This document shows, one piece after another, positions 18,953-42,793 of a stretch of 64,000 nucleotides of DNA. Within the stretch, counting starts at the first letter, position 1. Every line of letters starts with the position of its first letter. The stretch lies in NCBI RefSeq assembly GCF_003790525.1, contig NZ_CP033635.1, one strand, 5' to 3'. The notes below the pieces were generated by a model, which made no database searches, was not told where the DNA came from, and worked only from the letters and a program-made list of their open reading frames with translations. The position numbers and the translations under genes were made by a program. The stretch is from Escherichia coli. Lineage in GTDB: Bacteria; Pseudomonadota; Gammaproteobacteria; Enterobacterales; Enterobacteriaceae.

Positions 18953-19705
18953 TCAGGCAACGTTACGCGTGTGACCAGCAAGCTGGGCCAGCGCATCGTT
19001 ATTTTCGATGGTGATGTATTTACCTTTGACTGCCAGCATACCGCTTTTCTGGAAGCGGCCCAGCAGACGGCTGATGGTTTCAACCGTCAGGCCCAGATAG
19101 TTACCGATATCACCACGAGTCATCGTCAGGCGGAATTCACGAGGGGAGAAGCCGCGTTGGGCAAAACGACGGGACAGGTTGTAGATGAATGCAGCCAGAC
19201 GTTCCTCGGCATTTTTCTTCGACAACAGCAGGATCATGTCCTGATCGCCTTTGATTTCACCGCTCATCAGACGCATCATCTGCTGACGCAGATTCGGCAT
19301 TTTACCGGACAAATCGTCCAGCGTTTCGAACGGGATTTCACATACCATCGAGGTTTCCAGCGCCTGAGCGAAGCTCGGGTGATGACCGCTGCCGATAGCG
19401 TCAAATCCCACCAGGTCGCCTGCTAAATGGAAACCAGTGATTTGCTCGTCGCCTTGCTCAGTGATGGTATAACTTTTAATCGTACCGGAGCGGATGGCAT
19501 AAAGCGATTTAAGTTCATCACCAGCCTTAAACAGCGTCTGGCCTTTCTGAATAGGCTTCTTCCGCTCAATGATATTATCAAGCTGATCAAGCTCATGTTC
19601 GTTGAGTGTGAACGGGATGCAAAGCTGGCTGATGCTGCAATCCTGGCAATGGATAGCACAACCGCCAGACTGAATGCGCCGTATAATTCGCTTTTCCGGG
19701 ATCAT
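18953..19705 (-). CDS. fnr: Fumarate/nitrate reduction regulator FNR (CRP family, Fe-S)
   Basis: 250 aa from [29 protein letters not shown]; N-terminal Cys cluster; C-terminal HTH. Confidence 0.93.
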
Positions 19706-19724: not shown

Positions 19725-19738
19725 TTGATATTTGTCAA
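19725..19738. promoter_or_regulatory. FNR-box-like site in fnr promoter/leader
   Basis: TTGAT-ATTT-GTCAA, one mismatch to TTGAT-N4-ATCAA, 20-33 bp upstream of fnr start. Confidence 0.45.
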
Positions 19739-25828: not shown

Positions 25829-25836
25829 AACTGCAT

Positions 25837-25931
25837 AAAAAAAATAGAGTCTGTCGACATCCGCCAGACTCTACAGTACACACAGCAGTGCATCCGCGTC
25901 TTAAATCCGGCATGGTCTCCTCTGCGCCGGT
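25837..25931 (-). ncRNA. mcaS: McaS (IsrA) small regulatory RNA
   Basis: Minus-strand sequence ACCGGCGCAGAGGAGACCATGCCGGATTTAAGACGCGGATGCACTGCTGTGTGTACTGTAGAGTCTGGCGGATGTCGACAGACTCTATTTTTTTT matches remembered McaS, including terminal hairpin and U-tract; located between abgR and smrA as in K-12. Confidence 0.85.
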
Positions 25932-28208: not shown

Positions 28209-29213
<1,005 letters not shown>

Positions 29214-29259
29214 CAAAAGCAATTTTCCCGGCTGTCTGTATACAAAAACGCCGCAAAGT

Positions 29260-29273
29260 TTGAGCGAAGTCAA
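29260..29273. promoter_or_regulatory. FNR box of the fnrS promoter
   Basis: TTGAG-CGAA-GTCAA centred about 42 bp upstream of the FnrS 5' end, with -10-like CAATAT at 29296-29301. Confidence 0.7.
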
Positions 29274-29308
29274 TAAACTCTCTACCCATTCAGGGCAATA
29301 TCTCCCTT

Positions 29309-29430
29309 GCAGGTGAATGCAACGTCAAGCGATGGGCGTTGCGCTCCATATTGTCTTACTTCCTTTTTTGAATTACTGCATAGCACAATTGATTCGTACG
29401 ACGCCGACTTTGATGAGTCGGCTTTTTTTT
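29309..29430 (+). ncRNA. fnrS: FnrS small regulatory RNA (FNR-activated)
   Basis: GCAGGTGAATGCAACGTCAAGCGATGGGCGTTGCGCTCC...CGCCGACTTTGATGAGTCGGCTTTTTTTT matches remembered FnrS; 3' hairpin plus U8. Confidence 0.9.
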
Positions 29431-29487
29431 GCCTGTTATATATCAGCGTCTACCCTTTAAGAGTCCACCCAATGACCGGAGGGAAAT

Positions 29488-29661
29488 ATGACGACACTCA
29501 TTTATTTGCAAATTCCTGTCCCTGAACCGATTCCTGGCGATCCTGTTCCTGTGCCCGATCCGATCCCTCGCCCGCAACCCATGCCTGACCCACCCCCCGA
29601 TGAAGAACCGATTAAATTGTCGCATCGTGAGCGTAGATCTGCGAGGATACGTGCCTGCTGA
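29488..29661 (+). CDS. Candidate small proline-rich protein / upstream ORF (57 aa) 30 nt before dbpA
   Basis: ATG with SD GGAGGG 5 nt upstream; MTTLIYLQIPVPEPIPGDPVPVPDPIPRPQPMPDPPPDEEPIKLSHRERRSARIRAC; under 60 aa so absent from ORF track. Confidence 0.4.
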   Translation: MTTLIYLQIPVPEPIPGDPVPVPDPIPRPQPMPDPPPDEEPIKLSHRERRSARIRAC

Positions 29662-29690
29662 CTTTGCGTCGATGACCACGAGAATAGATT

Positions 29691-31064
29691 GTGACCGCTT
29701 TTTCTACCCTGAATGTTTTGCCTCCCGCCCAACTCACGAACCTTAATGAGTTGGGTTATTTAACCATGACGCCGGTGCAGGCCGCCGCGCTTCCGGCGAT
29801 CCTTGCCGGAAAAGATGTTCGCGTGCAGGCGAAAACCGGCAGTGGCAAAACGGCGGCTTTTGGCCTCGGCTTGTTACAGCAAATTGATGCGTCGCTATTT
29901 CAAACCCAGGCTTTAGTGCTGTGTCCTACGCGTGAACTGGCGGATCAGGTGGCAGGTGAATTGCGTCGGCTGGCGCGTTTTCTGCCAAATACCAAAATTT
30001 TGACGTTGTGCGGTGGTCAACCGTTCGGTATGCAGCGTGATTCGTTGCAACATGCGCCGCATATTATCGTGGCAACGCCGGGTCGTTTGCTGGATCACTT
30101 GCAAAAAGGCACGGTATCACTGGATGCGCTGAATACTTTGGTGATGGATGAGGCCGACCGCATGCTGGATATGGGATTTAGCGACGCCATTGATGATGTC
30201 ATCCGTTTTGCGCCAGCATCTCGACAGACGCTTCTGTTTTCGGCAACCTGGCCGGAAGCCATCGCCGCAATCAGCGGACGAGTGCAACGCGATCCTTTAG
30301 CGATTGAAATTGACTCAACAGATGCTCTGCCTCCCATTGAACAACAATTTTATGAGACATTCAGCAAAGGCAAAATTCCGTTGTTGCAACGGTTATTAAG
30401 TTTGCATCAGCCATCCTCTTGCGTGGTGTTTTGCAATACCAAAAAAGATTGCCAGGCTGTCTGTGACGCGCTGAATGAAGTAGGGCAAAGTGCATTGTCG
30501 TTACACGGCGATCTGGAGCAACGCGATCGCGATCAGACTCTGGTACGTTTTGCTAACGGTAGCGCCCGTGTACTGGTCGCGACTGATGTTGCTGCGCGTG
30601 GTCTGGATATTAAATCGCTTGAGCTGGTAGTGAACTTTGAACTGGCGTGGGACCCTGAAGTTCATGTACATCGCATCGGTCGTACAGCGCGTGCAGGAAA
30701 TAGCGGTCTGGCGATCAGTTTCTGTGCCCCGGAAGAAGCACAGCGGGCCAATATCATTTCTGACATGTTGCAGATAAAACTTAACTGGCAAACGCCGCCA
30801 GCTAATAGTTCCATTGTGCCGCTGGAAGCCGAAATGGCAACGTTATGTATCGATGGCGGGAAAAAAGCCAAAATGCGCCCGGGTGATGTATTAGGTGCGC
30901 TGACAGGAGATATCGGGCTTGATGGCGCAGATATTGGCAAAATCGCCGTGCATCCGGCGCATGTCTATGTCGCGGTGCGTCAGGCTGTTGCTCATAAAGC
31001 ATGGAAACAGTTACAGGGCGGGAAGATTAAAGGAAAAACGTGCCGGGTGCGGTTATTAAAATAA
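29691..31064 (+). CDS. dbpA: ATP-dependent RNA helicase DbpA (DEAD-box, 23S rRNA-specific)
   Basis: 457 aa; AKTGSGKT, DEAD (VMDEADRMLD), SAT, HRIGRTAR motifs. Confidence 0.93.
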   Translation: MTAFSTLNVLPPAQLTNLNELGYLTMTPVQAAALPAILAGKDVRVQAKTGSGKTAAFGLGLLQQIDASLFQTQALVLCPTRELADQVAGELRRLARFLPNTKILTLCGGQPFGMQRDSLQHAPHIIVATPGRLLDHLQKGTVSLDALNTLVMDEADRMLDMGFSDAIDDVIRFAPASRQTLLFSATWPEAIAAISGRVQRDPLAIEIDSTDALPPIEQQFYETFSKGKIPLLQRLLSLHQPSSCVVFCNTKKDCQAVCDALNEVGQSALSLHGDLEQRDRDQTLVRFANGSARVLVATDVAARGLDIKSLELVVNFELAWDPEVHVHRIGRTARAGNSGLAISFCAPEEAQRANIISDMLQIKLNWQTPPANSSIVPLEAEMATLCIDGGKKAKMRPGDVLGALTGDIGLDGADIGKIAVHPAHVYVAVRQAVAHKAWKQLQGGKIKGKTCRVRLLK

Positions 31065-33997: not shown

Positions 33998-34224
33998 TGA
34001 ATAAATCCTTTAGTTATTTTATTTGCCTTTTATCCCCATTTCGGGGAGTGAAAACATCCTAAAGGAGAAGTTCAGTTAGCCGATAAATATCATTTGTTAC
34101 GCCTTAAGTAAAACCTTAATCAAATAATTCCTCTGAAATGATAATAAGTCTGGTGAATGTATCGAAGATAATACATACAAAATAAAAATTATACTTTTAA
34201 TTTGCTATACGTTATTCTTCGCGG

Positions 34225-34334
34225 GTTATATGCCTTTATTGTCACAGATTTTATTTTCTGTTGGGCCATTGCATTGCCACTGATTTTCCAACATATAAAA
34301 AGACAAGCCCGAACAGTCGTCCGGGCTTTTTTTT
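34225..34334 (+). ncRNA. micC: MicC small regulatory RNA
   Basis: GTTATATGCCTTTATTGTCACAGATTTTATTTTCTGTTGGGCCATTGCATTGCCACTGATTTTCCAACATATAAAAAGACAAGCCCGAACAGTCGTCCGGGCTTTTTTTT matches remembered MicC; divergent from ompN. Confidence 0.9.
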
Positions 34335-34362
34335 AGAATTGGATAATCCTTATCCAGAGCAT

Positions 34363-37300
34363 TTAATCGGTGTTGCTTTTTTCCGCTTTTCCGGCCATTT
34401 GTGCCAGGAAGTCATAGCGTTTTTGCAAATCAGCTGCAGCATCTTTCCATAACTGTTCTGCCACTTCTGGCTGCTGCGAATTCAGACGACGGAAACGTTG
34501 CTCATGAAGTAACGTTTCTTCCAGTGCTTCTGACGGCGGGCGTGAATCCAGTGCCAGCGGCAGTTTGCCTTCATCGGCTCGACGTGGATCAAAGCGATAT
34601 AGCGGCCAGAAGCCGGTAGCAGTGAGTTGGCGCATCTGGTCGTGGCTGAGAGCCAGATCGTAACCATGCTCTTCACACGGGCTATAAGCAATGATCAGCG
34701 ATGGTCCCGGATACGCTTCCGCTTCCTGAATCGCTTTCACCGTCTGGTTCAGCTGCGCGCCGAGAGAAATCTGCGCCACATAAACATGACCGTACATCAT
34801 CATACTGACGCCAAGATCTTTACGCGCTTTACGTTTGCCGTGCTCGCCGAACTTAGTTACTGCACCCAGCGGTGTCGCTTTCGACGCCTGACCACCAGTG
34901 TTGGAATAGCATTGCGTATCCAGCACCAGAATGTTGACGTTTTCCGTCAGGCTCAATACATGATCCAGACCGCCAAAGCCAATATCGTAAGCCCAGCCAT
35001 CGCCACCAATCAGCCAGATTGATTTTTCCACCAGAGCATCTGCGTCACGCAGCAGTTCATGTGCTTCGGCAACATCGTTGAGTTGCTGGCGTAAAGCTGC
35101 AACCTGTTCACGACGAATCTCTGGCGTAGCGTCTGATTTCAACGCAGTCAGTAATTCCGCCGGGATTTTATCGGCAAATTGATCCAGCAGACGCAGCACG
35201 CGGACACGGTGTTGATCGACCGTAAGGCGGAAACCAAGGCCGAATTCGGCGTTATCTTCAAACAGCGAGTTCGCCCATGCCGGTCCACGACCGTTGGCAT
35301 CAGTGGTATATGGTGTGGAGGGCAGGTTACCACCATAAATTGAAGAACAACCCGTAGCGTTAGCGATCAACATCCGATCGCCATAGAGCTGAGTCAGCAA
35401 TTTAATATACGGCGTCTCGCCACAACCGGAGCAAGCACCGGAATATTCAAACAGCGGTGTAATCAGCTGTGATGTACGAATATCAATACGTTCCAGTTTG
35501 CTACGGTCGATTTCTGGCAGGTTGAGGAAGAAATCGTAATTGATTTTCTCTTCTTCGACATGTTCCAGCCGCGACATCATATTGATGGCTTTAATCTCTG
35601 GATTCTGACGGTCTTTCGCCGGGCAAACTTCGACGCACAGGTTACAACCGGTGCAATCTTCCGGAGCCACCTGCAAGACATATTTCTGCCCGCGCATATC
35701 ACGCGATTTCACATCCAGCGAATGCAGGCTGGCAGGGGCGTTTTCCATCGCTTCAGGCGGTACCACTTTTGCGCGAATAGCTGAGTGTGGGCAAGCAGCG
35801 ACGCAGTGGTTACATTGGGTACAGAGTTCCTCTTTCCAGATGGGGATCTCTTCGGCGATATTGCGTTTTTCCCAGCGCGTGGTGCCCATCGGCCAGGTGC
35901 CGTCTGGCGGCAGCGCCGAAACGGGGAGGGCATCACCAAGCCCGGCGAGCATCGCCGCGGTTACGGTTTTCACGAAATCAGGGGCGGCATCGGAAACCAC
36001 TGGCGGTCGATTGGCGCTGTGCGGATTTACTGGTTGCAGCGGAACTTCTTCTACGGATTCACGTGCCAGCGCCAGAGCCTGCCAGTTGCGCTCCACCAGA
36101 TCCTGACCTTTGCTACTGTAACTTTTGGCAATCGCACCCTGCAATTCTGCGAGGGCGCTATCGCCAGGCAGAATTTGCGTCAGATGGAAAAAAGCCATCT
36201 GCATGACGGTATTAATTCGGGCCGCCAGGCCACATTCGCGGGCGATTTTCGCCGCGTTAATCACATAGAAGCGCGCTTTTTTCTGGTTTAACACGGCCTG
36301 AACTTCCTGCGGCAAGCGCGACCACACTTCATCTGCGCTGTACGGCGTGTTGAGCAGGAAAATGCCGCCAGGTTTTAAACGCTCAACCATCTGATATTTG
36401 TCGATAAACTGCAACTGGTGGCAGCCAACAAAATCAGCCTGGGAAATCAGATAAGCGGAACGAATCGGCTGCTCGCTCACGCGAAGGTGAGAAACCGTCA
36501 GGCCGCCCGCCTTTTTGGAGTCGTAAACAAAATAGCCCTGTGCGTACCACGGCGTGGAATTACCGATAATCTTGATATTGTTTTTGGTCGCGGAAACGCT
36601 GCCATCACTACCAAGGCCATAAAACAAGGCTTCAAGTTTCGCCGAGTTTGGCAGGGTGTTTTCCGGCAACGGCAGTGACAGATTGGTCACATCATCGTAA
36701 ATACCAACCGTAAAGCGCGCTTTCGGTTTAGCCGCGTTGAGCTCGGCAAATACCGCCAGTACACAGTCCGGGCCAAATTCTTTGGATGAAAGACCATAGC
36801 GCCCACCAATGACACGGGGCAGGGTTTCGCGCTCGCCATTATTAAAGGCTTCTGCCAGTGCGGTCATCACATCCAGATAGAGCGGTTCTGCCTGGGCACC
36901 GGGTTCTTTGGTTCTGTCCAGTACCGCCACGCTGCGTACGGATCCCGGCAGAGCTTGTAGCAAGTGTTTGGCGGAGAAGGGACGGTACAGGCGAACTTTC
37001 AGCACGCCGACTTTTTCGCCACGGGTTAGCAATTCATCAACCACTTCTTCACAGGTGCCAATGGCTGAGCCCATCAGGATAATCACCCGTTCCGCTTGCG
37101 GATGCCCATAATACTCAAATGGCTGATACTGACGACCTGTCGCGGCAGCGAAATCATTCATCGCCTGTTCAACATGGTCATAGACCGCGTTGTACCAGGG
37201 GTTGGTGGCTTCGCGAGACTGGAAATAAGTGTCAGGATTGGCGGACGTACCGCGGATCACCGGATGTTCCGGGTTGAGCGCCCGGGCGCGATGAGCATCA

Positions 37301-37887
37301 ATTTCGGCCTGCGGCATGAGATCAAGAATAGTGTCATCGGCCAGCGGGACAATTTTATTGATTTCGTGGGACGTGCGGAAACCATCAAAGAAATGAATAA
37401 ATGGCACGCGGCTCTTCAGCGTTGCGATGTGCGAAATGAGAGCAAAGTCTTGCGCTTCCTGGACGTTAGCCGCACACAACATCGCGCAACCCGTCTGGCG
37501 CACCGCCATAACGTCGGAATGATCGCCAAAAATAGAGAGTGCATGTGTGGCAACGGTACGTGCCGCTACATGCAGGACAAACGGTGTGAGTTCGCCTGCC
37601 AGTTTGTACAGCGTCGGGATCATCAGCAGCAAACCCTGCGATGACGTAAACGATGTTGAAAGGGCACCCGTCTGCAAAGCGCCATGCACGGTAGCGATAG
37701 CACCCGCTTCCGACTGCATTTCAACCACGCGTGGTGTGTCTCCCCAAACGTTCTTCAAGCCGTTTCCGGCCCAGGCATCAGCCTGTTCTGCCATCGTGGA
37801 ACTGGGGGTAATAGGGTAGATGGCGATAACTTCACTGGTGCGAAACGCCACCGAAGCAACCGCGCCATTACCGTCAATAGTAATCAT
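34363..37887 (-). CDS. ydbK: Pyruvate:flavodoxin/ferredoxin oxidoreductase (PFOR)
   Basis: 1174 aa; ferredoxin-type clusters CTQCNHCVAACP and CTGCNLCVEVCP; TPP-binding domain. Confidence 0.93.
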   Translation of the reverse strand: MITIDGNGAVASVAFRTSEVIAIYPITPSSTMAEQADAWAGNGLKNVWGDTPRVVEMQSEAGAIATVHGALQTGALSTSFTSSQGLLLMIPTLYKLAGELTPFVLHVAARTVATHALSIFGDHSDVMAVRQTGCAMLCAANVQEAQDFALISHIATLKSRVPFIHFFDGFRTSHEINKIVPLADDTILDLMPQAEIDAHRARALNPEHPVIRGTSANPDTYFQSREATNPWYNAVYDHVEQAMNDFAAATGRQYQPFEYYGHPQAERVIILMGSAIGTCEEVVDELLTRGEKVGVLKVRLYRPFSAKHLLQALPGSVRSVAVLDRTKEPGAQAEPLYLDVMTALAEAFNNGERETLPRVIGGRYGLSSKEFGPDCVLAVFAELNAAKPKARFTVGIYDDVTNLSLPLPENTLPNSAKLEALFYGLGSDGSVSATKNNIKIIGNSTPWYAQGYFVYDSKKAGGLTVSHLRVSEQPIRSAYLISQADFVGCHQLQFIDKYQMVERLKPGGIFLLNTPYSADEVWSRLPQEVQAVLNQKKARFYVINAAKIARECGLAARINTVMQMAFFHLTQILPGDSALAELQGAIAKSYSSKGQDLVERNWQALALARESVEEVPLQPVNPHSANRPPVVSDAAPDFVKTVTAAMLAGLGDALPVSALPPDGTWPMGTTRWEKRNIAEEIPIWKEELCTQCNHCVAACPHSAIRAKVVPPEAMENAPASLHSLDVKSRDMRGQKYVLQVAPEDCTGCNLCVEVCPAKDRQNPEIKAINMMSRLEHVEEEKINYDFFLNLPEIDRSKLERIDIRTSQLITPLFEYSGACSGCGETPYIKLLTQLYGDRMLIANATGCSSIYGGNLPSTPYTTDANGRGPAWANSLFEDNAEFGLGFRLTVDQHRVRVLRLLDQFADKIPAELLTALKSDATPEIRREQVAALRQQLNDVAEAHELLRDADALVEKSIWLIGGDGWAYDIGFGGLDHVLSLTENVNILVLDTQCYSNTGGQASKATPLGAVTKFGEHGKRKARKDLGVSMMMYGHVYVAQISLGAQLNQTVKAIQEAEAYPGPSLIIAYSPCEEHGYDLALSHDQMRQLTATGFWPLYRFDPRRADEGKLPLALDSRPPSEALEETLLHEQRFRRLNSQQPEVAEQLWKDAAADLQKRYDFLAQMAGKAEKSNTD

Positions 37888-38160
37888 ATGACACCCTTAC
37901 ATTGCGCAAATGAGGGGCGCACGAAATTGCTGCGCGCCCAGTAGTTATCTTTCAATTTTAGCAAATGGCTTTCTTCTGCATTTTCGCTTTTGTGTCCCCC
38001 ACATCAGCGTAATGAATGTTTTGATCAAACAGAGGGCAAAAAAATAGCCATAAAAAAGTAAAAATGCGGGGCAACGCGCAGGACAGCTCTCGACGCCGCC
38101 CTCTGTGCTGCCTATTATTTATGGCGGTGTCGTTTGGCTTGAAGATCAGAGGAAGAAAAG

Positions 38161-38427
38161 ATGCGAGCAGCGTTTTGGGTAGGGTGTGCCGCTTTATTAT
38201 TGTCGGCGTGTAGTAGTGAACCTGTTCAGCAGGCGACTGCGGCGCACGTAGCGCCAGGTTTAAAAGCGTCGATGTCCAGTAGTGGAGAAGCAAATTGTGC
38301 AATGATCGGCGGTTCGCTTTCTGTTGCCCGTCAACTGGATGGTACGGCGATTGGGATGTGTGCATTACCCAACGGCAAACGCTGTAGCGAACAGTCACTT
38401 GCCGCCGGGAGCTGTGGCAGCTATTAA
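38161..38427 (+). CDS. ydbJ: Small lipoprotein (DUF333)
   Basis: 88 aa; lipobox LSAC; RBS GAGGAAG; 3' end overlaps hslJ by 4 nt. Confidence 0.8.
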   Translation: MRAAFWVGCAALLLSACSSEPVQQATAAHVAPGLKASMSSSGEANCAMIGGSLSVARQLDGTAIGMCALPNGKRCSEQSLAAGSCGSY

Positions 38428-38846
38428 TTCATTAAATCCGCCAGCTTATAAGTTAATGTCTGTTTCGCGGTCGCCAGCGTTAACTGGTTCGCGGTCAGAT
38501 CCACTTGTGCACCTTCTTTCAGCATTTCGCTAATGGTGTTATCGAGTTCATTAAGCTGCGGGTTAGCGCACATCATACGGGTCATTGCCAGTCCTTTGGC
38601 TGTCAGTTCACCATTAGACAGTTTGCCTTCACCGCTAAAGCGGTTACACATGCTGCCGGAAATCATCATCTTTTCACCAAAGCTGATTTCTGGCGGATTT
38701 TTATCGCTGGTCACGGGCTTACCGTTTACGCTTTCCAGCACAAAGCGATGATGCTGTAGCTGTTCTGGGGTTACAGCAATTTTGTCATTACTTACACATC
38801 CCGCCATCAGCAGGCTTAGCGCAACAAACGCGGCTACTTTCTTCAT
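38424..38846 (-). CDS. hslJ: Heat-shock lipoprotein HslJ (META domain)
   Basis: 140 aa from MKKVAAFVALSLLMAGC (lipobox MAGC). Confidence 0.85.
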   Translation of the reverse strand: MKKVAAFVALSLLMAGCVSNDKIAVTPEQLQHHRFVLESVNGKPVTSDKNPPEISFGEKMMISGSMCNRFSGEGKLSNGELTAKGLAMTRMMCANPQLNELDNTISEMLKEGAQVDLTANQLTLATAKQTLTYKLADLMN

Positions 38847-38956
38847 TGTGGTTCTCAATTACAGTTTCTGACTCAGGACTATTTTAAGAATAGAGGATGA
38901 AAGGTCTTTGGGGATTATCTGAATAAGCTCCCCTGGAATGCAGGGGAGCGGCAAGA

Positions 38957-39946
38957 TTAAACCAGTTCGTTCGGGCAGGTTTCGCCTTTTTCCAGATTGC
39001 TTAAGTTTTGCAGCGTAGTCTGAGAAATACTGGTCAGTGCTTCTGCTGTCAGGAATGCCTGGTGCCCGGTAAACAGCACGTTGTGGCAGGCAGACAGACG
39101 ACGGAATACGTCATCCTGGATCACGTCGTTGGATTTGTCTTCAAAGAACAGATCGCGTTCGTTCTCATACACGTCCATACCCAACGAACCAATTTTCTGA
39201 TTTTTCAGCGCTTCAATTGCTGCCTGAGAATTAATCAATGCACCGCGACTGGTATTGACGATCATCACGCCATTTTTCATCTGATCGAAGGCGGCTTCGT
39301 TCAACAGATGATAGTTTTCCGGTGTCAGCGGGCAGTGCAGAGAGATAACGTCTGATTCAGAGAACAGGGTTGGCAGATCGACATACTCCACACCGAGTTC
39401 CAGCGCCGCCGCACTTGGATACGGATCGAACGCCAGCAGACGCATACCAAAACCTTTCAGAATGCGCAGCATCGCCACACCGATTTTACCAGTACCGATA
39501 ACGCCTGCCGTTTTGCCATACATAGTAAAGCCGGTCAGACCTTCCAGAGAGAAGTTGGCGTCACGGGTACGCTGATACGCGCGGTGAATACGGCGGTTCA
39601 GCGTCATCATCATACCGATGGCATGTTCAGCAACGGCTTCTGGATCATAGGCTGGAACACGGACTACTTTCAGCCCCAGTTCTTTTGCCGCGTCAAGGTC
39701 GACGTTATTGAAACCGGCACAGCGCAGGGCGATATATTTAACGCCGTGCTTTTTCAGCTCTTCCAGCACCGGGCGGCTGCCGTCATCGTTTACGAAAATA
39801 CATACCGCTTCGCAGCCATTGGCAGTTTTAGCGGTTTTTTCCGTCAGCAGAAAGTCAAAAAATTCCAGCTCAAAGCCAAAGGACTCGTTCACCTGTTGCA
39901 GGTACTTCTTGTCGTACTGTTTTGTGCTATAAACGGCGAGTTTCAT
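38957..39946 (-). CDS. ldhA: Fermentative D-lactate dehydrogenase (NAD-dependent)
   Basis: 329 aa; GVIGTGKIG dinucleotide fold; D-2-hydroxyacid dehydrogenase family. Confidence 0.93.
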   Translation of the reverse strand: MKLAVYSTKQYDKKYLQQVNESFGFELEFFDFLLTEKTAKTANGCEAVCIFVNDDGSRPVLEELKKHGVKYIALRCAGFNNVDLDAAKELGLKVVRVPAYDPEAVAEHAIGMMMTLNRRIHRAYQRTRDANFSLEGLTGFTMYGKTAGVIGTGKIGVAMLRILKGFGMRLLAFDPYPSAAALELGVEYVDLPTLFSESDVISLHCPLTPENYHLLNEAAFDQMKNGVMIVNTSRGALINSQAAIEALKNQKIGSLGMDVYENERDLFFEDKSNDVIQDDVFRRLSACHNVLFTGHQAFLTAEALTSISQTTLQNLSNLEKGETCPNELV

Positions 39947-40153
39947 AAGACTTTCTCCAGTGATGTTGAATCACATTTAAGCTACTAAAAATATTTTACA
40001 AAATTTCAAATATAATTGAAAGCTATGGCGATATTGAAAAATTCATCAACAACTATGCTTAGTGTAGGCGCAACCTTCAACTGAACGGTTAAACATGCCA
40101 CAATACCCGTATTGAATGCTTAATTTTTCGCTAAATCAGGATATTAACTACCC

Positions 40154-42793
40154 ATGCTGGGTAAATATAAAGCCGTTCTCGCGCTGTTATTACTGATTAT
40201 TCTTGTGCCGTTGACGCTGCTGATGACGCTCGGGCTGTGGGTTCCTACGCTGGCGGGCATCTGGCTACCGCTCGGGACACGTATTGCATTAGATGAAAGC
40301 CCACGCATTACGCGTAAAGGTTTAATCATTCCCGATCTCCGTTATCTGGTGGGAGATTGTCAGCTTGCGCATATCACCAACGCCAGCCTTTCACATCCCA
40401 GCCGCTGGTTATTGAACGTCGGCACGGTAGAACTTGATTCTGCTTGTCTGGCGAAATTGCCGCAGACGGAGCAATCGCCAGCCGCTCCAAAAACCCTCGC
40501 GCAGTGGCAGGCCATGTTGCCTAACACCTGGATCAATATCGATAAACTGATTTTTTCTCCCTGGCAGGAATGGCAGGGAAAACTCTCTCTCGCATTAACC
40601 TCCGATATCCAGCAACTGCGTTATCAGGGCGAAAAAGTTAAATTTCAAGGCCAGCTGAAAGGGCAACAACTTACAGTCAGCGAACTGGATGTCGTCGCGT
40701 TTGAAAATCAGCCGCCGGTTAAACTGGTGGGGGAATTTACTATGCCGCTCGTGCCGGATGGACTTCCGGTAAGTGGGCATGCTACTGCGACGTTAAACTT
40801 GCCGCAGGAACCGTCACTGGTGGATGCAGAGCTGGACTGGCAGGAAAATAGCGGGCAATTGATCGTGCTGGCACGGGATAACGGCGATCCGTTGCTCGAT
40901 TTGCCGTGGCAAATTACTCGTCAACAATTGACCGTAAGCGATGGTCGCTGGAGCTGGCCGTATGCAGGTTTTCCTTTGAGTGGCCGACTGGGTGTCAAAG
41001 TCGACAACTGGCAGGCAGGGCTCGAGAACGCTCTGGTCAGCGGACGACTGAGTGTGCTGACCCAGGGGCAAGCGGGTAAGGGCAACGCGGTGCTTAATTT
41101 TGGCCCAGGAAAATTAAGCATGGATAACAGCCAGCTGCCTATGCAACTGACCGGTGAAGCGAAACAGGCGGACCTCATTTTATATGCCCGTTTACCTGCG
41201 CAGCTAAGTGGAAGTCTGTCTGACCCAACGTTGACCTTTGAGCCAGGCGCGTTACTTCGTTCAAAGGGAAGAGTCATTGATTCGCTGGACATCGATGAAA
41301 TCCGCTGGCCTTTAGCGGGTGTAAAAGTCACCCAACGTGGTATTGACGGACGTTTGCAGGCCATTTTGCAGGCGCATGAAAATGAACTGGGCGATTTCGT
41401 GCTGCATATGGATGGACTGGCGAATGATTTTCTCCCTGACGCTGGCCGCTGGCAGTGGCGCTACTGGGGAAAAGGCAGTTTTACACCGATGAATGCCACC
41501 TGGGATGTCGCAGGAAAGGGTGAGTGGCATGACAGCACGATTACGCTGACCGATCTCTCCACCGGTTTCGACCAGTTACAATACGGTACGATGACGGTAG
41601 AAAAGCCGCGACTAATTCTCGACAAGCCCGTCGTCTGGGTACGTGACGCACAGCATCCCTCCTTTAGCGGCGCGCTGTCACTGGACGCCGGGCAAACGCT
41701 GTTCACTGGCGGCAGTGTGTTACCGCCATCGACCTTAAAATTTAGCGTCGATGGACGCGATCCGACGTATTTCCTCTTTAAAGGCGATTTACATGCTGGT
41801 GAGATTGGCCCGGTTCGGGTAAATGGTCGCTGGGACGGTATTCGTCTGCGCGGTAACGCCTGGTGGCCTAAACAATCACTGACCGTATTCCAGCCGCTGG
41901 TGCCACCCGACTGGAAGATGAACTTACGCGATGGCGAACTATATGCCCAGGTCGCATTTTCTGCTGCGCCTGAACAAGGATTCCGCGCGGGAGGGCACGG
42001 CGTGTTGAAAGGCGGTAGTGCCTGGATGCCAGATAATCAGGTTAACGGTGTCGATTTTGTCCTGCCTTTCCGTTTTGCCGATGGAGCCTGGCATCTGGGG
42101 ACTCGCGGCCCCGTTACGTTGCGAATTGCCGAAGTGATTAATCTGGTGACAGCGAAAAATATTACGGCTGATTTGCAAGGGCGTTATCCGTGGAGTGAAG
42201 ACGAACCATTGTTGTTGACCGATGTTAGCGTCGATGTGTTAGGCGGTAACGTGCTGATGAAACAATTACGTATGCCGCAACATGACCCGGCGCTGTTGCG
42301 GCTGAATAATCTTTCCTCCAGCGAACTGGTTAGCGCCGTCAATCCGAAACAATTCGCCATGTCCGGGGCATTTAGTGGTGCATTGCCGTTATGGCTAAAC
42401 AACGAAAAATGGATAGTGAAAGATGGTTGGCTGGCAAATAGCGGGCCAATGACCTTGCGGCTGGATAAAGACACCGCAGATGCGGTGGTGAAAGACAATA
42501 TGACTGCGGGTTCAGCAATTAACTGGTTGCGCTATATGGAAATTAGCCGTTCATCGACAAAAATTAATTTAGATAATCTCGGTTTATTAACCATGCAGGC
42601 CAACATTACAGGTACCAGTCGCGTTGATGGTAAAAGCGGTACGGTAAATCTTAATTACCATCATGAAGAGAATATTTTTACGCTGTGGCGCAGTTTACGC
42701 TTTGGCGATAATCTCCAGGCATGGTTGGAGCAGAACGCACGTCTGCCGGGAAATGACTGTCCGCAAGGAAAAGAGTGTGAGGAAAAACAATGA
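40154..42793 (+). CDS. ydbH: AsmA-like large membrane-anchored periplasmic protein
   Basis: 879 aa; N-terminal TM anchor; stop overlaps ynbE start (ATGA). Confidence 0.9.
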   Translation: MLGKYKAVLALLLLIILVPLTLLMTLGLWVPTLAGIWLPLGTRIALDESPRITRKGLIIPDLRYLVGDCQLAHITNASLSHPSRWLLNVGTVELDSACLAKLPQTEQSPAAPKTLAQWQAMLPNTWINIDKLIFSPWQEWQGKLSLALTSDIQQLRYQGEKVKFQGQLKGQQLTVSELDVVAFENQPPVKLVGEFTMPLVPDGLPVSGHATATLNLPQEPSLVDAELDWQENSGQLIVLARDNGDPLLDLPWQITRQQLTVSDGRWSWPYAGFPLSGRLGVKVDNWQAGLENALVSGRLSVLTQGQAGKGNAVLNFGPGKLSMDNSQLPMQLTGEAKQADLILYARLPAQLSGSLSDPTLTFEPGALLRSKGRVIDSLDIDEIRWPLAGVKVTQRGIDGRLQAILQAHENELGDFVLHMDGLANDFLPDAGRWQWRYWGKGSFTPMNATWDVAGKGEWHDSTITLTDLSTGFDQLQYGTMTVEKPRLILDKPVVWVRDAQHPSFSGALSLDAGQTLFTGGSVLPPSTLKFSVDGRDPTYFLFKGDLHAGEIGPVRVNGRWDGIRLRGNAWWPKQSLTVFQPLVPPDWKMNLRDGELYAQVAFSAAPEQGFRAGGHGVLKGGSAWMPDNQVNGVDFVLPFRFADGAWHLGTRGPVTLRIAEVINLVTAKNITADLQGRYPWSEDEPLLLTDVSVDVLGGNVLMKQLRMPQHDPALLRLNNLSSSELVSAVNPKQFAMSGAFSGALPLWLNNEKWIVKDGWLANSGPMTLRLDKDTADAVVKDNMTAGSAINWLRYMEISRSSTKINLDNLGLLTMQANITGTSRVDGKSGTVNLNYHHEENIFTLWRSLRFGDNLQAWLEQNARLPGNDCPQGKECEEKQ

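Follow-up and report, generated by a model that had tools for sequence, protein, structure and literature searches.

FnrS, listed in Rfam under the name 'frnS', was reportedly described in E. coli K-12 by Durand and Storz in 2010 and by Boysen et al. in the same year. The RNA is under the control of FNR, is made on the shift to anaerobiosis and belongs to the Hfq-dependent class of sRNAs (PMC11572966). It represses genes that are dispensable without oxygen, and does so by pairing near their ribosome-binding sites; when overexpressed, it represses iscR 16-fold by pairing, and Hfq improves this pairing (PMC11572966). A passage of PMC8313858 that cites Durand and Storz 2010 states that FnrS pairs with its targets through more than one distinct region. 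The published mutants are fnrS-III (G4C, G5U), fnrS-II (C47A, U48A, U49G) and fnrS-I (U57A, U58G, U59A) (PMC8595263). Within the indirect FNR regulon, eleven operons are explained by FnrS (PMC3688515).

The FNR consensus is quoted as TTGAT-N4-ATCAA, and class II FNR sites are defined as those lying at -41.5 +/- 4 nt (PMC3688515). For K-12, Myers et al. 2013 place the top-scoring site of the FNR ChIP-seq peak upstream of fnrS at -42.5 (PMC3688515).

The locus described here occupies positions 29260-29430 of the window, which is the whole 64-kb stretch of DNA that was analysed. It is almost certainly the known FnrS module, consisting of a class II FNR promoter with a CAATAT -10 hexamer and a 122-nt sRNA that ends in a hairpin followed by U8. 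The biology of FnrS at this locus is already known, and nothing new on FnrS is added. The locus serves as a positive control: a reading made from the letters of the DNA named the sRNA, its activator site, the -10 hexamer and the terminator to the base. The features are collected in Table 1.

Table 1. Features of the fnrS locus and of the surrounding window, with the basis of each assignment
Feature	Position	Strand	Basis
fnr	18953-19705	-	ORF translation, 250 aa; annotated fnr, WP_000611911.1, in SMS-3-5
McaS/IsrA sRNA	25836-25931	-	Rfam, 112.3 bits
FNR box TTGAGCGAAGTCAA (TTGAG-CGAA-GTCAA)	29260-29273	+	sequence, ChIP-seq position in K-12, orthologue conservation
-10 hexamer CAATAT	29296-29301 (-13..-8)	+	sequence and orthologue conservation
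fnrS	29309-29430	+	Rfam RF01796 match and alignment to K-12 b4699
5'-end pairing region GCAGGUGAAU, nt 1-10	29309-29318	+	contains G4, G5; orthologue conservation
Stem-loop 1, nt 10-35	29318-29343	+	MFE/centroid fold, Rfam consensus, alifold
Single-stranded C/U-rich pairing region GUCUUACUUCCUUUUUUGA, about nt 44-62	29352-29370	+	contains C47U48U49 and U57-59; Rfam consensus and alifold; orthologue conservation
Stem-loop 2, nt 62-87	29370-29395	+	fold and Rfam consensus
Intrinsic terminator, 8-bp stem and U8	29403-29422 (stem), 29423-29430 (U8)	+	terminator scan and fold; covariation and T-run in orthologues
ynaL	29488-29661	+	57-aa proline-rich protein MTTLIYLQIPVPEPIPGDPVPVPDPIPRPQPMPDPPPDEEPIKLSHRERRSARIRAC
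MicC sRNA	34222-34342	+	Rfam, 125.3 bits

Identity of the RNA

Scanning the whole window with Rfam gives a match to RF01796 at 29309-29426 on the plus strand, with a score of 134.8 bits (E = 4.4e-24) and covering positions 1-119 of the 119 in the model. The gathering score of this family is 60 bits, a threshold that is also passed by 12 of 12 distant orthologous loci. The original prediction had named this RNA as FnrS, and alignment to the annotated K-12 gene b4699 bears this out: all 122 of 122 positions are identical. The match extends through the two pairing regions, the hairpin of the terminator and U8, and neither the seed nor the terminator diverges. The 5' end is a G at 29309, equivalent to position 1409129 of K-12, and the 3' end is the last U of U8. 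Position 29309 is taken as +1 from the annotated 5' end in K-12. With this numbering, the positions changed in the published mutants (G4/G5, C47U48U49 and U57-59) carry the expected bases. The RNA is invariant between K-12 and the SMS-3-5-like strain studied here.

The 551 bases around fnrS are 100% identical to those of SMS-3-5 and several other strains, and this region is found in 5392 of the 5426 complete E. coli genomes. Over 40551 compared bases, the window and SMS-3-5 differ at 2. Judged by these identities, positions 29260-29430 are the fnrS locus of an E. coli strain nearly identical to SMS-3-5. In K-12 MG1655, fnrS (b4699, 1409129-1409250) is flanked by zntB/ydaN and by ynaL/dbpA, and the gene order zntB-fnrS-ynaL-dbpA is the same in the window. 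Across orthologous loci, zntB lies directly 5' of fnrS in 109/120. Another 7 of the 120 have zntB 3' of fnrS on the opposite strand, in convergent orientation, which suggests a local inversion in some lineages.

The RefSeq/PGAP annotation of SMS-3-5 has no fnrS feature at the corresponding place (NC_010498.1, 1797203-1797324), and in other RefSeq genomes no feature is annotated beneath the matches to a 60-mer of the fnrS promoter. Among the records inspected, only that of K-12 annotates the FnrS sRNA. The missing fnrS in SMS-3-5 is an annotation gap and not a sign that the gene is absent; automated annotation overlooks it.

The gene for FNR itself is encoded in the same window. It had been placed about 10 kb upstream of fnrS, and its distance from the fnrS start is indeed 9.6 kb; the word upstream applies to position only, since the two genes are on opposite strands. 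The fetched orthologous loci are short (median of about 3 kb upstream), and fnr is reached in only 2/120. A near-consensus FNR site with one mismatch, TTGATATTTGTCAA, is found at 19725-19738; fnr is read from the minus strand with its start codon at 19705, and the site is centred about 26 nt 5' of that codon. This is probably the site of fnr autoregulation.

FNR box and promoter

The box TTGAGCGAAGTCAA matches the FNR consensus at 8 of 10 positions, retains an intact TTGA/TCAA core and has the same sequence in the window and in K-12. Its centre, between 29266 and 29267, lies at -42.5 from +1. The original prediction of a class II FNR site about 42 bp upstream of the 5' end agrees with this value, which is inside the class II range (canonical position -41.5) and equal to the published position in K-12. 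The proposed -10-like CAATAT is also in place. The sequence at -36..-31 is ATAAAC, which has 2/6 matches to TTGACA and provides no usable -35, and a consensus sigma-70 scan of 28900-29800 called no promoter. Both results are expected of an activator-dependent promoter.

Taken alone, the FNR box is statistically unremarkable within the 64-kb window. Allowing up to 2 mismatches, TTGAT-N4-ATCAA occurs 59 times against 40 expected; for the core TTGA-N6-TCAA there are 3 occurrences where 1.6 would be expected. The third exact core in the window is TTGACACGTTTCAA at 52400-52413. What places the box above chance is its fixed offset in orthologues and not its count in the window.

Orthologues were sought with a 22-mer from stem-loop 1 (nt 12-33) in one genome per bacterial species, giving 120 loci from the Enterobacterales in genera that include Citrobacter, Enterobacter, Yersinia, Serratia, Pantoea, Erwinia, Edwardsiella, Dickeya and Pectobacterium. 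The promoters were aligned ungapped and anchored on the RNA, leaving 118 distinct sequences. Information peaks in these at TTGA (-49..-46), TCAA (-39..-36), -14..-12 and -8, and falls to about 0.1 bit per position in the spacer between the box and the -10 (-35..-21). At -49..-36 the TTGA/TCAA core is present with no mismatch in 81 of the 118 and with one mismatch in a further 35, so that 116/118 have at most one; at control offsets in the same sequences, a core of this quality occurs at 5 of 9676 positions. In the -10 hexamer, A is found at -12 in 117/118 and T at -8 in 116/118. The FNR box, the key -10 positions, the 5' end of the RNA and its C/U-rich region are fixed across Enterobacterales, and the surrounding DNA drifts.

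With 300 flanking bases included, the window has four substitutions relative to K-12, at 29305, at 29228 and at two positions 3' of the terminator. The first of these, T to C at -4, is the sole difference in the fnrS promoter. A 60-mer covering -54..+6 and including the C at -4 is found exactly in 1356 of 5193 matching E. coli genomes, and T is the base at -4 in 106/118 promoters across Enterobacterales. As a natural variant, the C allele is common.

Immediately 5' of the FNR box, at 29245-29248 (-64..-61), is a conserved A-tract; among the 118 promoters, 114 have A at -62, 101 have it at -61 and 99 at -63. At this position the RNA polymerase alpha C-terminal domain could make contact upstream of a class II activator. 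Further upstream, the direct repeat GTAAAtggttGTAAC at 29200-29214 on the plus strand (-109..-95 of fnrS) resembles the CpxR consensus GTAAA-N5-GTAAA. This repeat overlaps the last zntB codons and the stop, and its conservation is inseparable from the coding constraint on zntB. Protein-occupancy data have led to the prediction of a CpxR motif near the fnrS promoter (PMC8313858).

RNA structure and pairing regions

The first ten nucleotides of FnrS are invariant among the 118 orthologues, at 2.0 bits each, and lie outside the pattern used for the search (nt 12-33). Near-invariance extends over nt 1-11 and most of nt 34-60. Stem-loop 1, which the search pattern fixes in part, hardly varies and gives little evidence of covariation. 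The C/U-rich region carries 1.0-2.0 bits per position; in the single-sequence fold a weak outer helix takes up nt 45-51, and nt 52-61 stay unpaired. Stem-loop 2 is variable in sequence across orthologues.

The 3' hairpin with U8 is found as the original prediction had it. The terminator stem, GCCGACTT/GAGTCGGC (nt 95-114), has 8 pairs, 5 of them G-C, and a loop of 4. Compensatory pairs occur at 99:110 (A-U in 55 orthologues, G-C in 53) and at 100:109 (C-G in 90, U-A in 27), and the T-run is 7-9 long in 120/120 loci. We take the hairpin and U8 to be the Hfq-binding 3' end, in line with established sRNA biology. The fold energy of the single sequence has a z-score of -1.67, which is not significant. 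Weak z-scores are common for sRNAs with long single-stranded pairing regions. The structure of FnrS rests on the Rfam model and on the covariation in the terminator.

Proposed mechanism

During anaerobiosis, dimeric [4Fe-4S]-FNR would bind TTGAGCGAAGTCAA, centred at -42.5. Bound there, FNR would substitute for the missing -35 and bring sigma-70 RNA polymerase to CAATAT by class II activation, with transcription predicted to start at the G at 29309. Termination at the hairpin and U8 (29403-29430) would yield the 122-nt Hfq-dependent sRNA FnrS. The 5' end (G4, G5) and the C/U-rich nt 47-59 would then pair with the translation-initiation regions of mRNAs that are dispensable without oxygen, blocking translation and lowering mRNA levels. 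Known targets, on which the RNA may be expected to act here as well, include sodB, sodA, gpmA, cydDC, marA and iscR. FNR occupancy, anaerobic induction, Hfq dependence and the targets are taken from the K-12 literature. We infer that the K-12 mechanism holds in the present strain too; the transfer is graded as safe, given an identical RNA and a promoter whose one difference is at -4.

Alternative readings of the locus

It could be argued that the palindrome at 29260-29273 is mainly a site for CRP or another member of the CRP family, or a chance match, and that FNR controls fnrS indirectly. CRP and FNR sites are related in sequence, and by itself the box shows no statistical enrichment in the window. 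The half-sites, however, are TTGA/TCAA of the FNR type and not GTGA/TCAC of the CRP type, with a GTGA left half-site in only 1/118 orthologues. The K-12 ChIP-seq peak, assigned to a site at -42.5 whose box is identical in the window (PMC3688515), and the fixed offset of the core in nearly all orthologues argue in the same direction. Half-site identity, ChIP-seq and conservation together lead to rejection of this reading, which is very improbable. It is hardly more credible that FnrS has a dual function, with a peptide translated from an AUG at +9 (29317) in the frame MQRQAMGVALHIVLLPFLNYCIAQLIRTTPTLMSRLFFACYISASTL. This frame is open for 47 codons in E. coli and begins just past an AGGUGA motif, but the motif ends too near the AUG, at a distance of only 1 nt, and the frame passes through the terminator, leaving the 122-nt RNA without a stop codon. 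Among orthologues the first stop ranges from 17 codons to a fully open frame, and one orthologue lacks the AUG; conservation of FnrS tracks the RNA structure and the pairing regions and not codon positions. With a frame that varies among orthologues and no stop inside the RNA, the peptide is rejected.

A further reading supplements the FnrS explanation and does not replace it. FnrS may also form the 5' portion of a longer transcript, dependent on FNR, which extends past the terminator into ynaL and perhaps dbpA, with YnaL co-regulated. ynaL is on the same strand as fnrS, begins 57 nt past the U8 tail and stops 29 nt short of dbpA. A homologue of YnaL lies 3' of fnrS on the same strand in 82/120 Enterobacterales loci, at 45-69 nt past the terminator in 76 of these 82, and its conserved core, DPIPRPQPMPDPPPDEEPIK, includes a PPP motif. 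In an ungapped footprint of the fnrS-ynaL spacer across orthologues nothing is conserved but the Shine-Dalgarno sequence, and the sigma-70 scan that called no promoter in 28900-29800 covers ynaL as well. SPA tagging has shown YnaL to be a real protein, encoded between fnrS and dbpA in the same orientation (PMC6001520). Against this, the fnrS terminator is strong and conserved, and YnaL was seen in screens whose description does not mention anaerobic conditions (PMC6001520), suggesting a promoter independent of FNR; ungapped footprints may also overlook ynaL promoters that shift position between species. On balance, a longer transcript of this kind is possible and rather unlikely.

The corresponding proposal for the locus as a whole is that zntB, fnrS and ynaL may form a conserved three-part module across Enterobacterales, in which transcripts from the FNR-dependent promoter would read past the FnrS terminator and supply all or some of the YnaL made. 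This would fit the conserved gene order and spacing and the lack of a conserved promoter in the spacer of about 57 nt; it is held at low probability. If it were true, FnrS would also serve as the 5' leader of a ynaL(-dbpA) mRNA induced by anaerobiosis. As an alternative to read-through expression, ynaL may serve dbpA as a leader ORF. The conserved adjacency of ynaL and the FnrS terminator is the sole element here with some forward value.

Other elements in the window

MicC is at a distance of only about 5 kb from fnrS, since uspF and a porin gene (ompC in the PGAP annotation) come straight after ttcA. In K-12, ttcA is followed by the Rac prophage, which is absent in the present strain. From 43764 onward on the plus strand there is a large autotransporter gene, apparently intact in the fetched portion (34615-40551 of the fetched locus, where the locus edge cuts it). 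Its K-12 counterpart, ydbA, is an IS-disrupted pseudogene.

Comparison with known systems

FnrS of K-12 MG1655 is the closest system. It has the same RNA, the same FNR box, -10 hexamer and terminator, and the same neighbours (zntB on one side, ynaL and dbpA on the other), and neither the four substitutions listed above nor the absence of Rac further 3' touches a defined functional element. The reading of the locus as a known anaerobic sRNA module is upheld by the full-length Rfam match, by this identity of the RNA, by the published position of the FNR site and by the conservation of the footprint.

Among class II FNR promoters, ydhY (-42.5) and narG, dmsA and nirB (-41.5) resemble fnrS in having a single FNR site over the -35 region (PMC3688515). 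They also share with it a recognisable -10, the lack of a -35 hexamer and a centre within -41.5 +/- 4. The fnrS promoter differs in that its centre is at -42.5, compared with a modal position of -41.5, and in that its product is a non-coding RNA and not the mRNA of a respiratory enzyme.

As a regulatory arrangement, FnrS is similar to other sRNAs of stress regulons through which a transcription factor gains a repressive arm, such as RyhB (Fur) and OxyS (OxyR), where a factor induces or de-represses one Hfq-dependent sRNA that acts post-transcriptionally on many mRNAs. RyhB and FnrS have the targets sodA, sodB and marA in common (PMC8595263), and both OxyS and FnrS act on iscR (PMC11572966). 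RyhB, which responds to iron, and OxyS, which responds to peroxide, are nevertheless unrelated to FnrS in sequence, answer to other signals and belong to other Rfam families.
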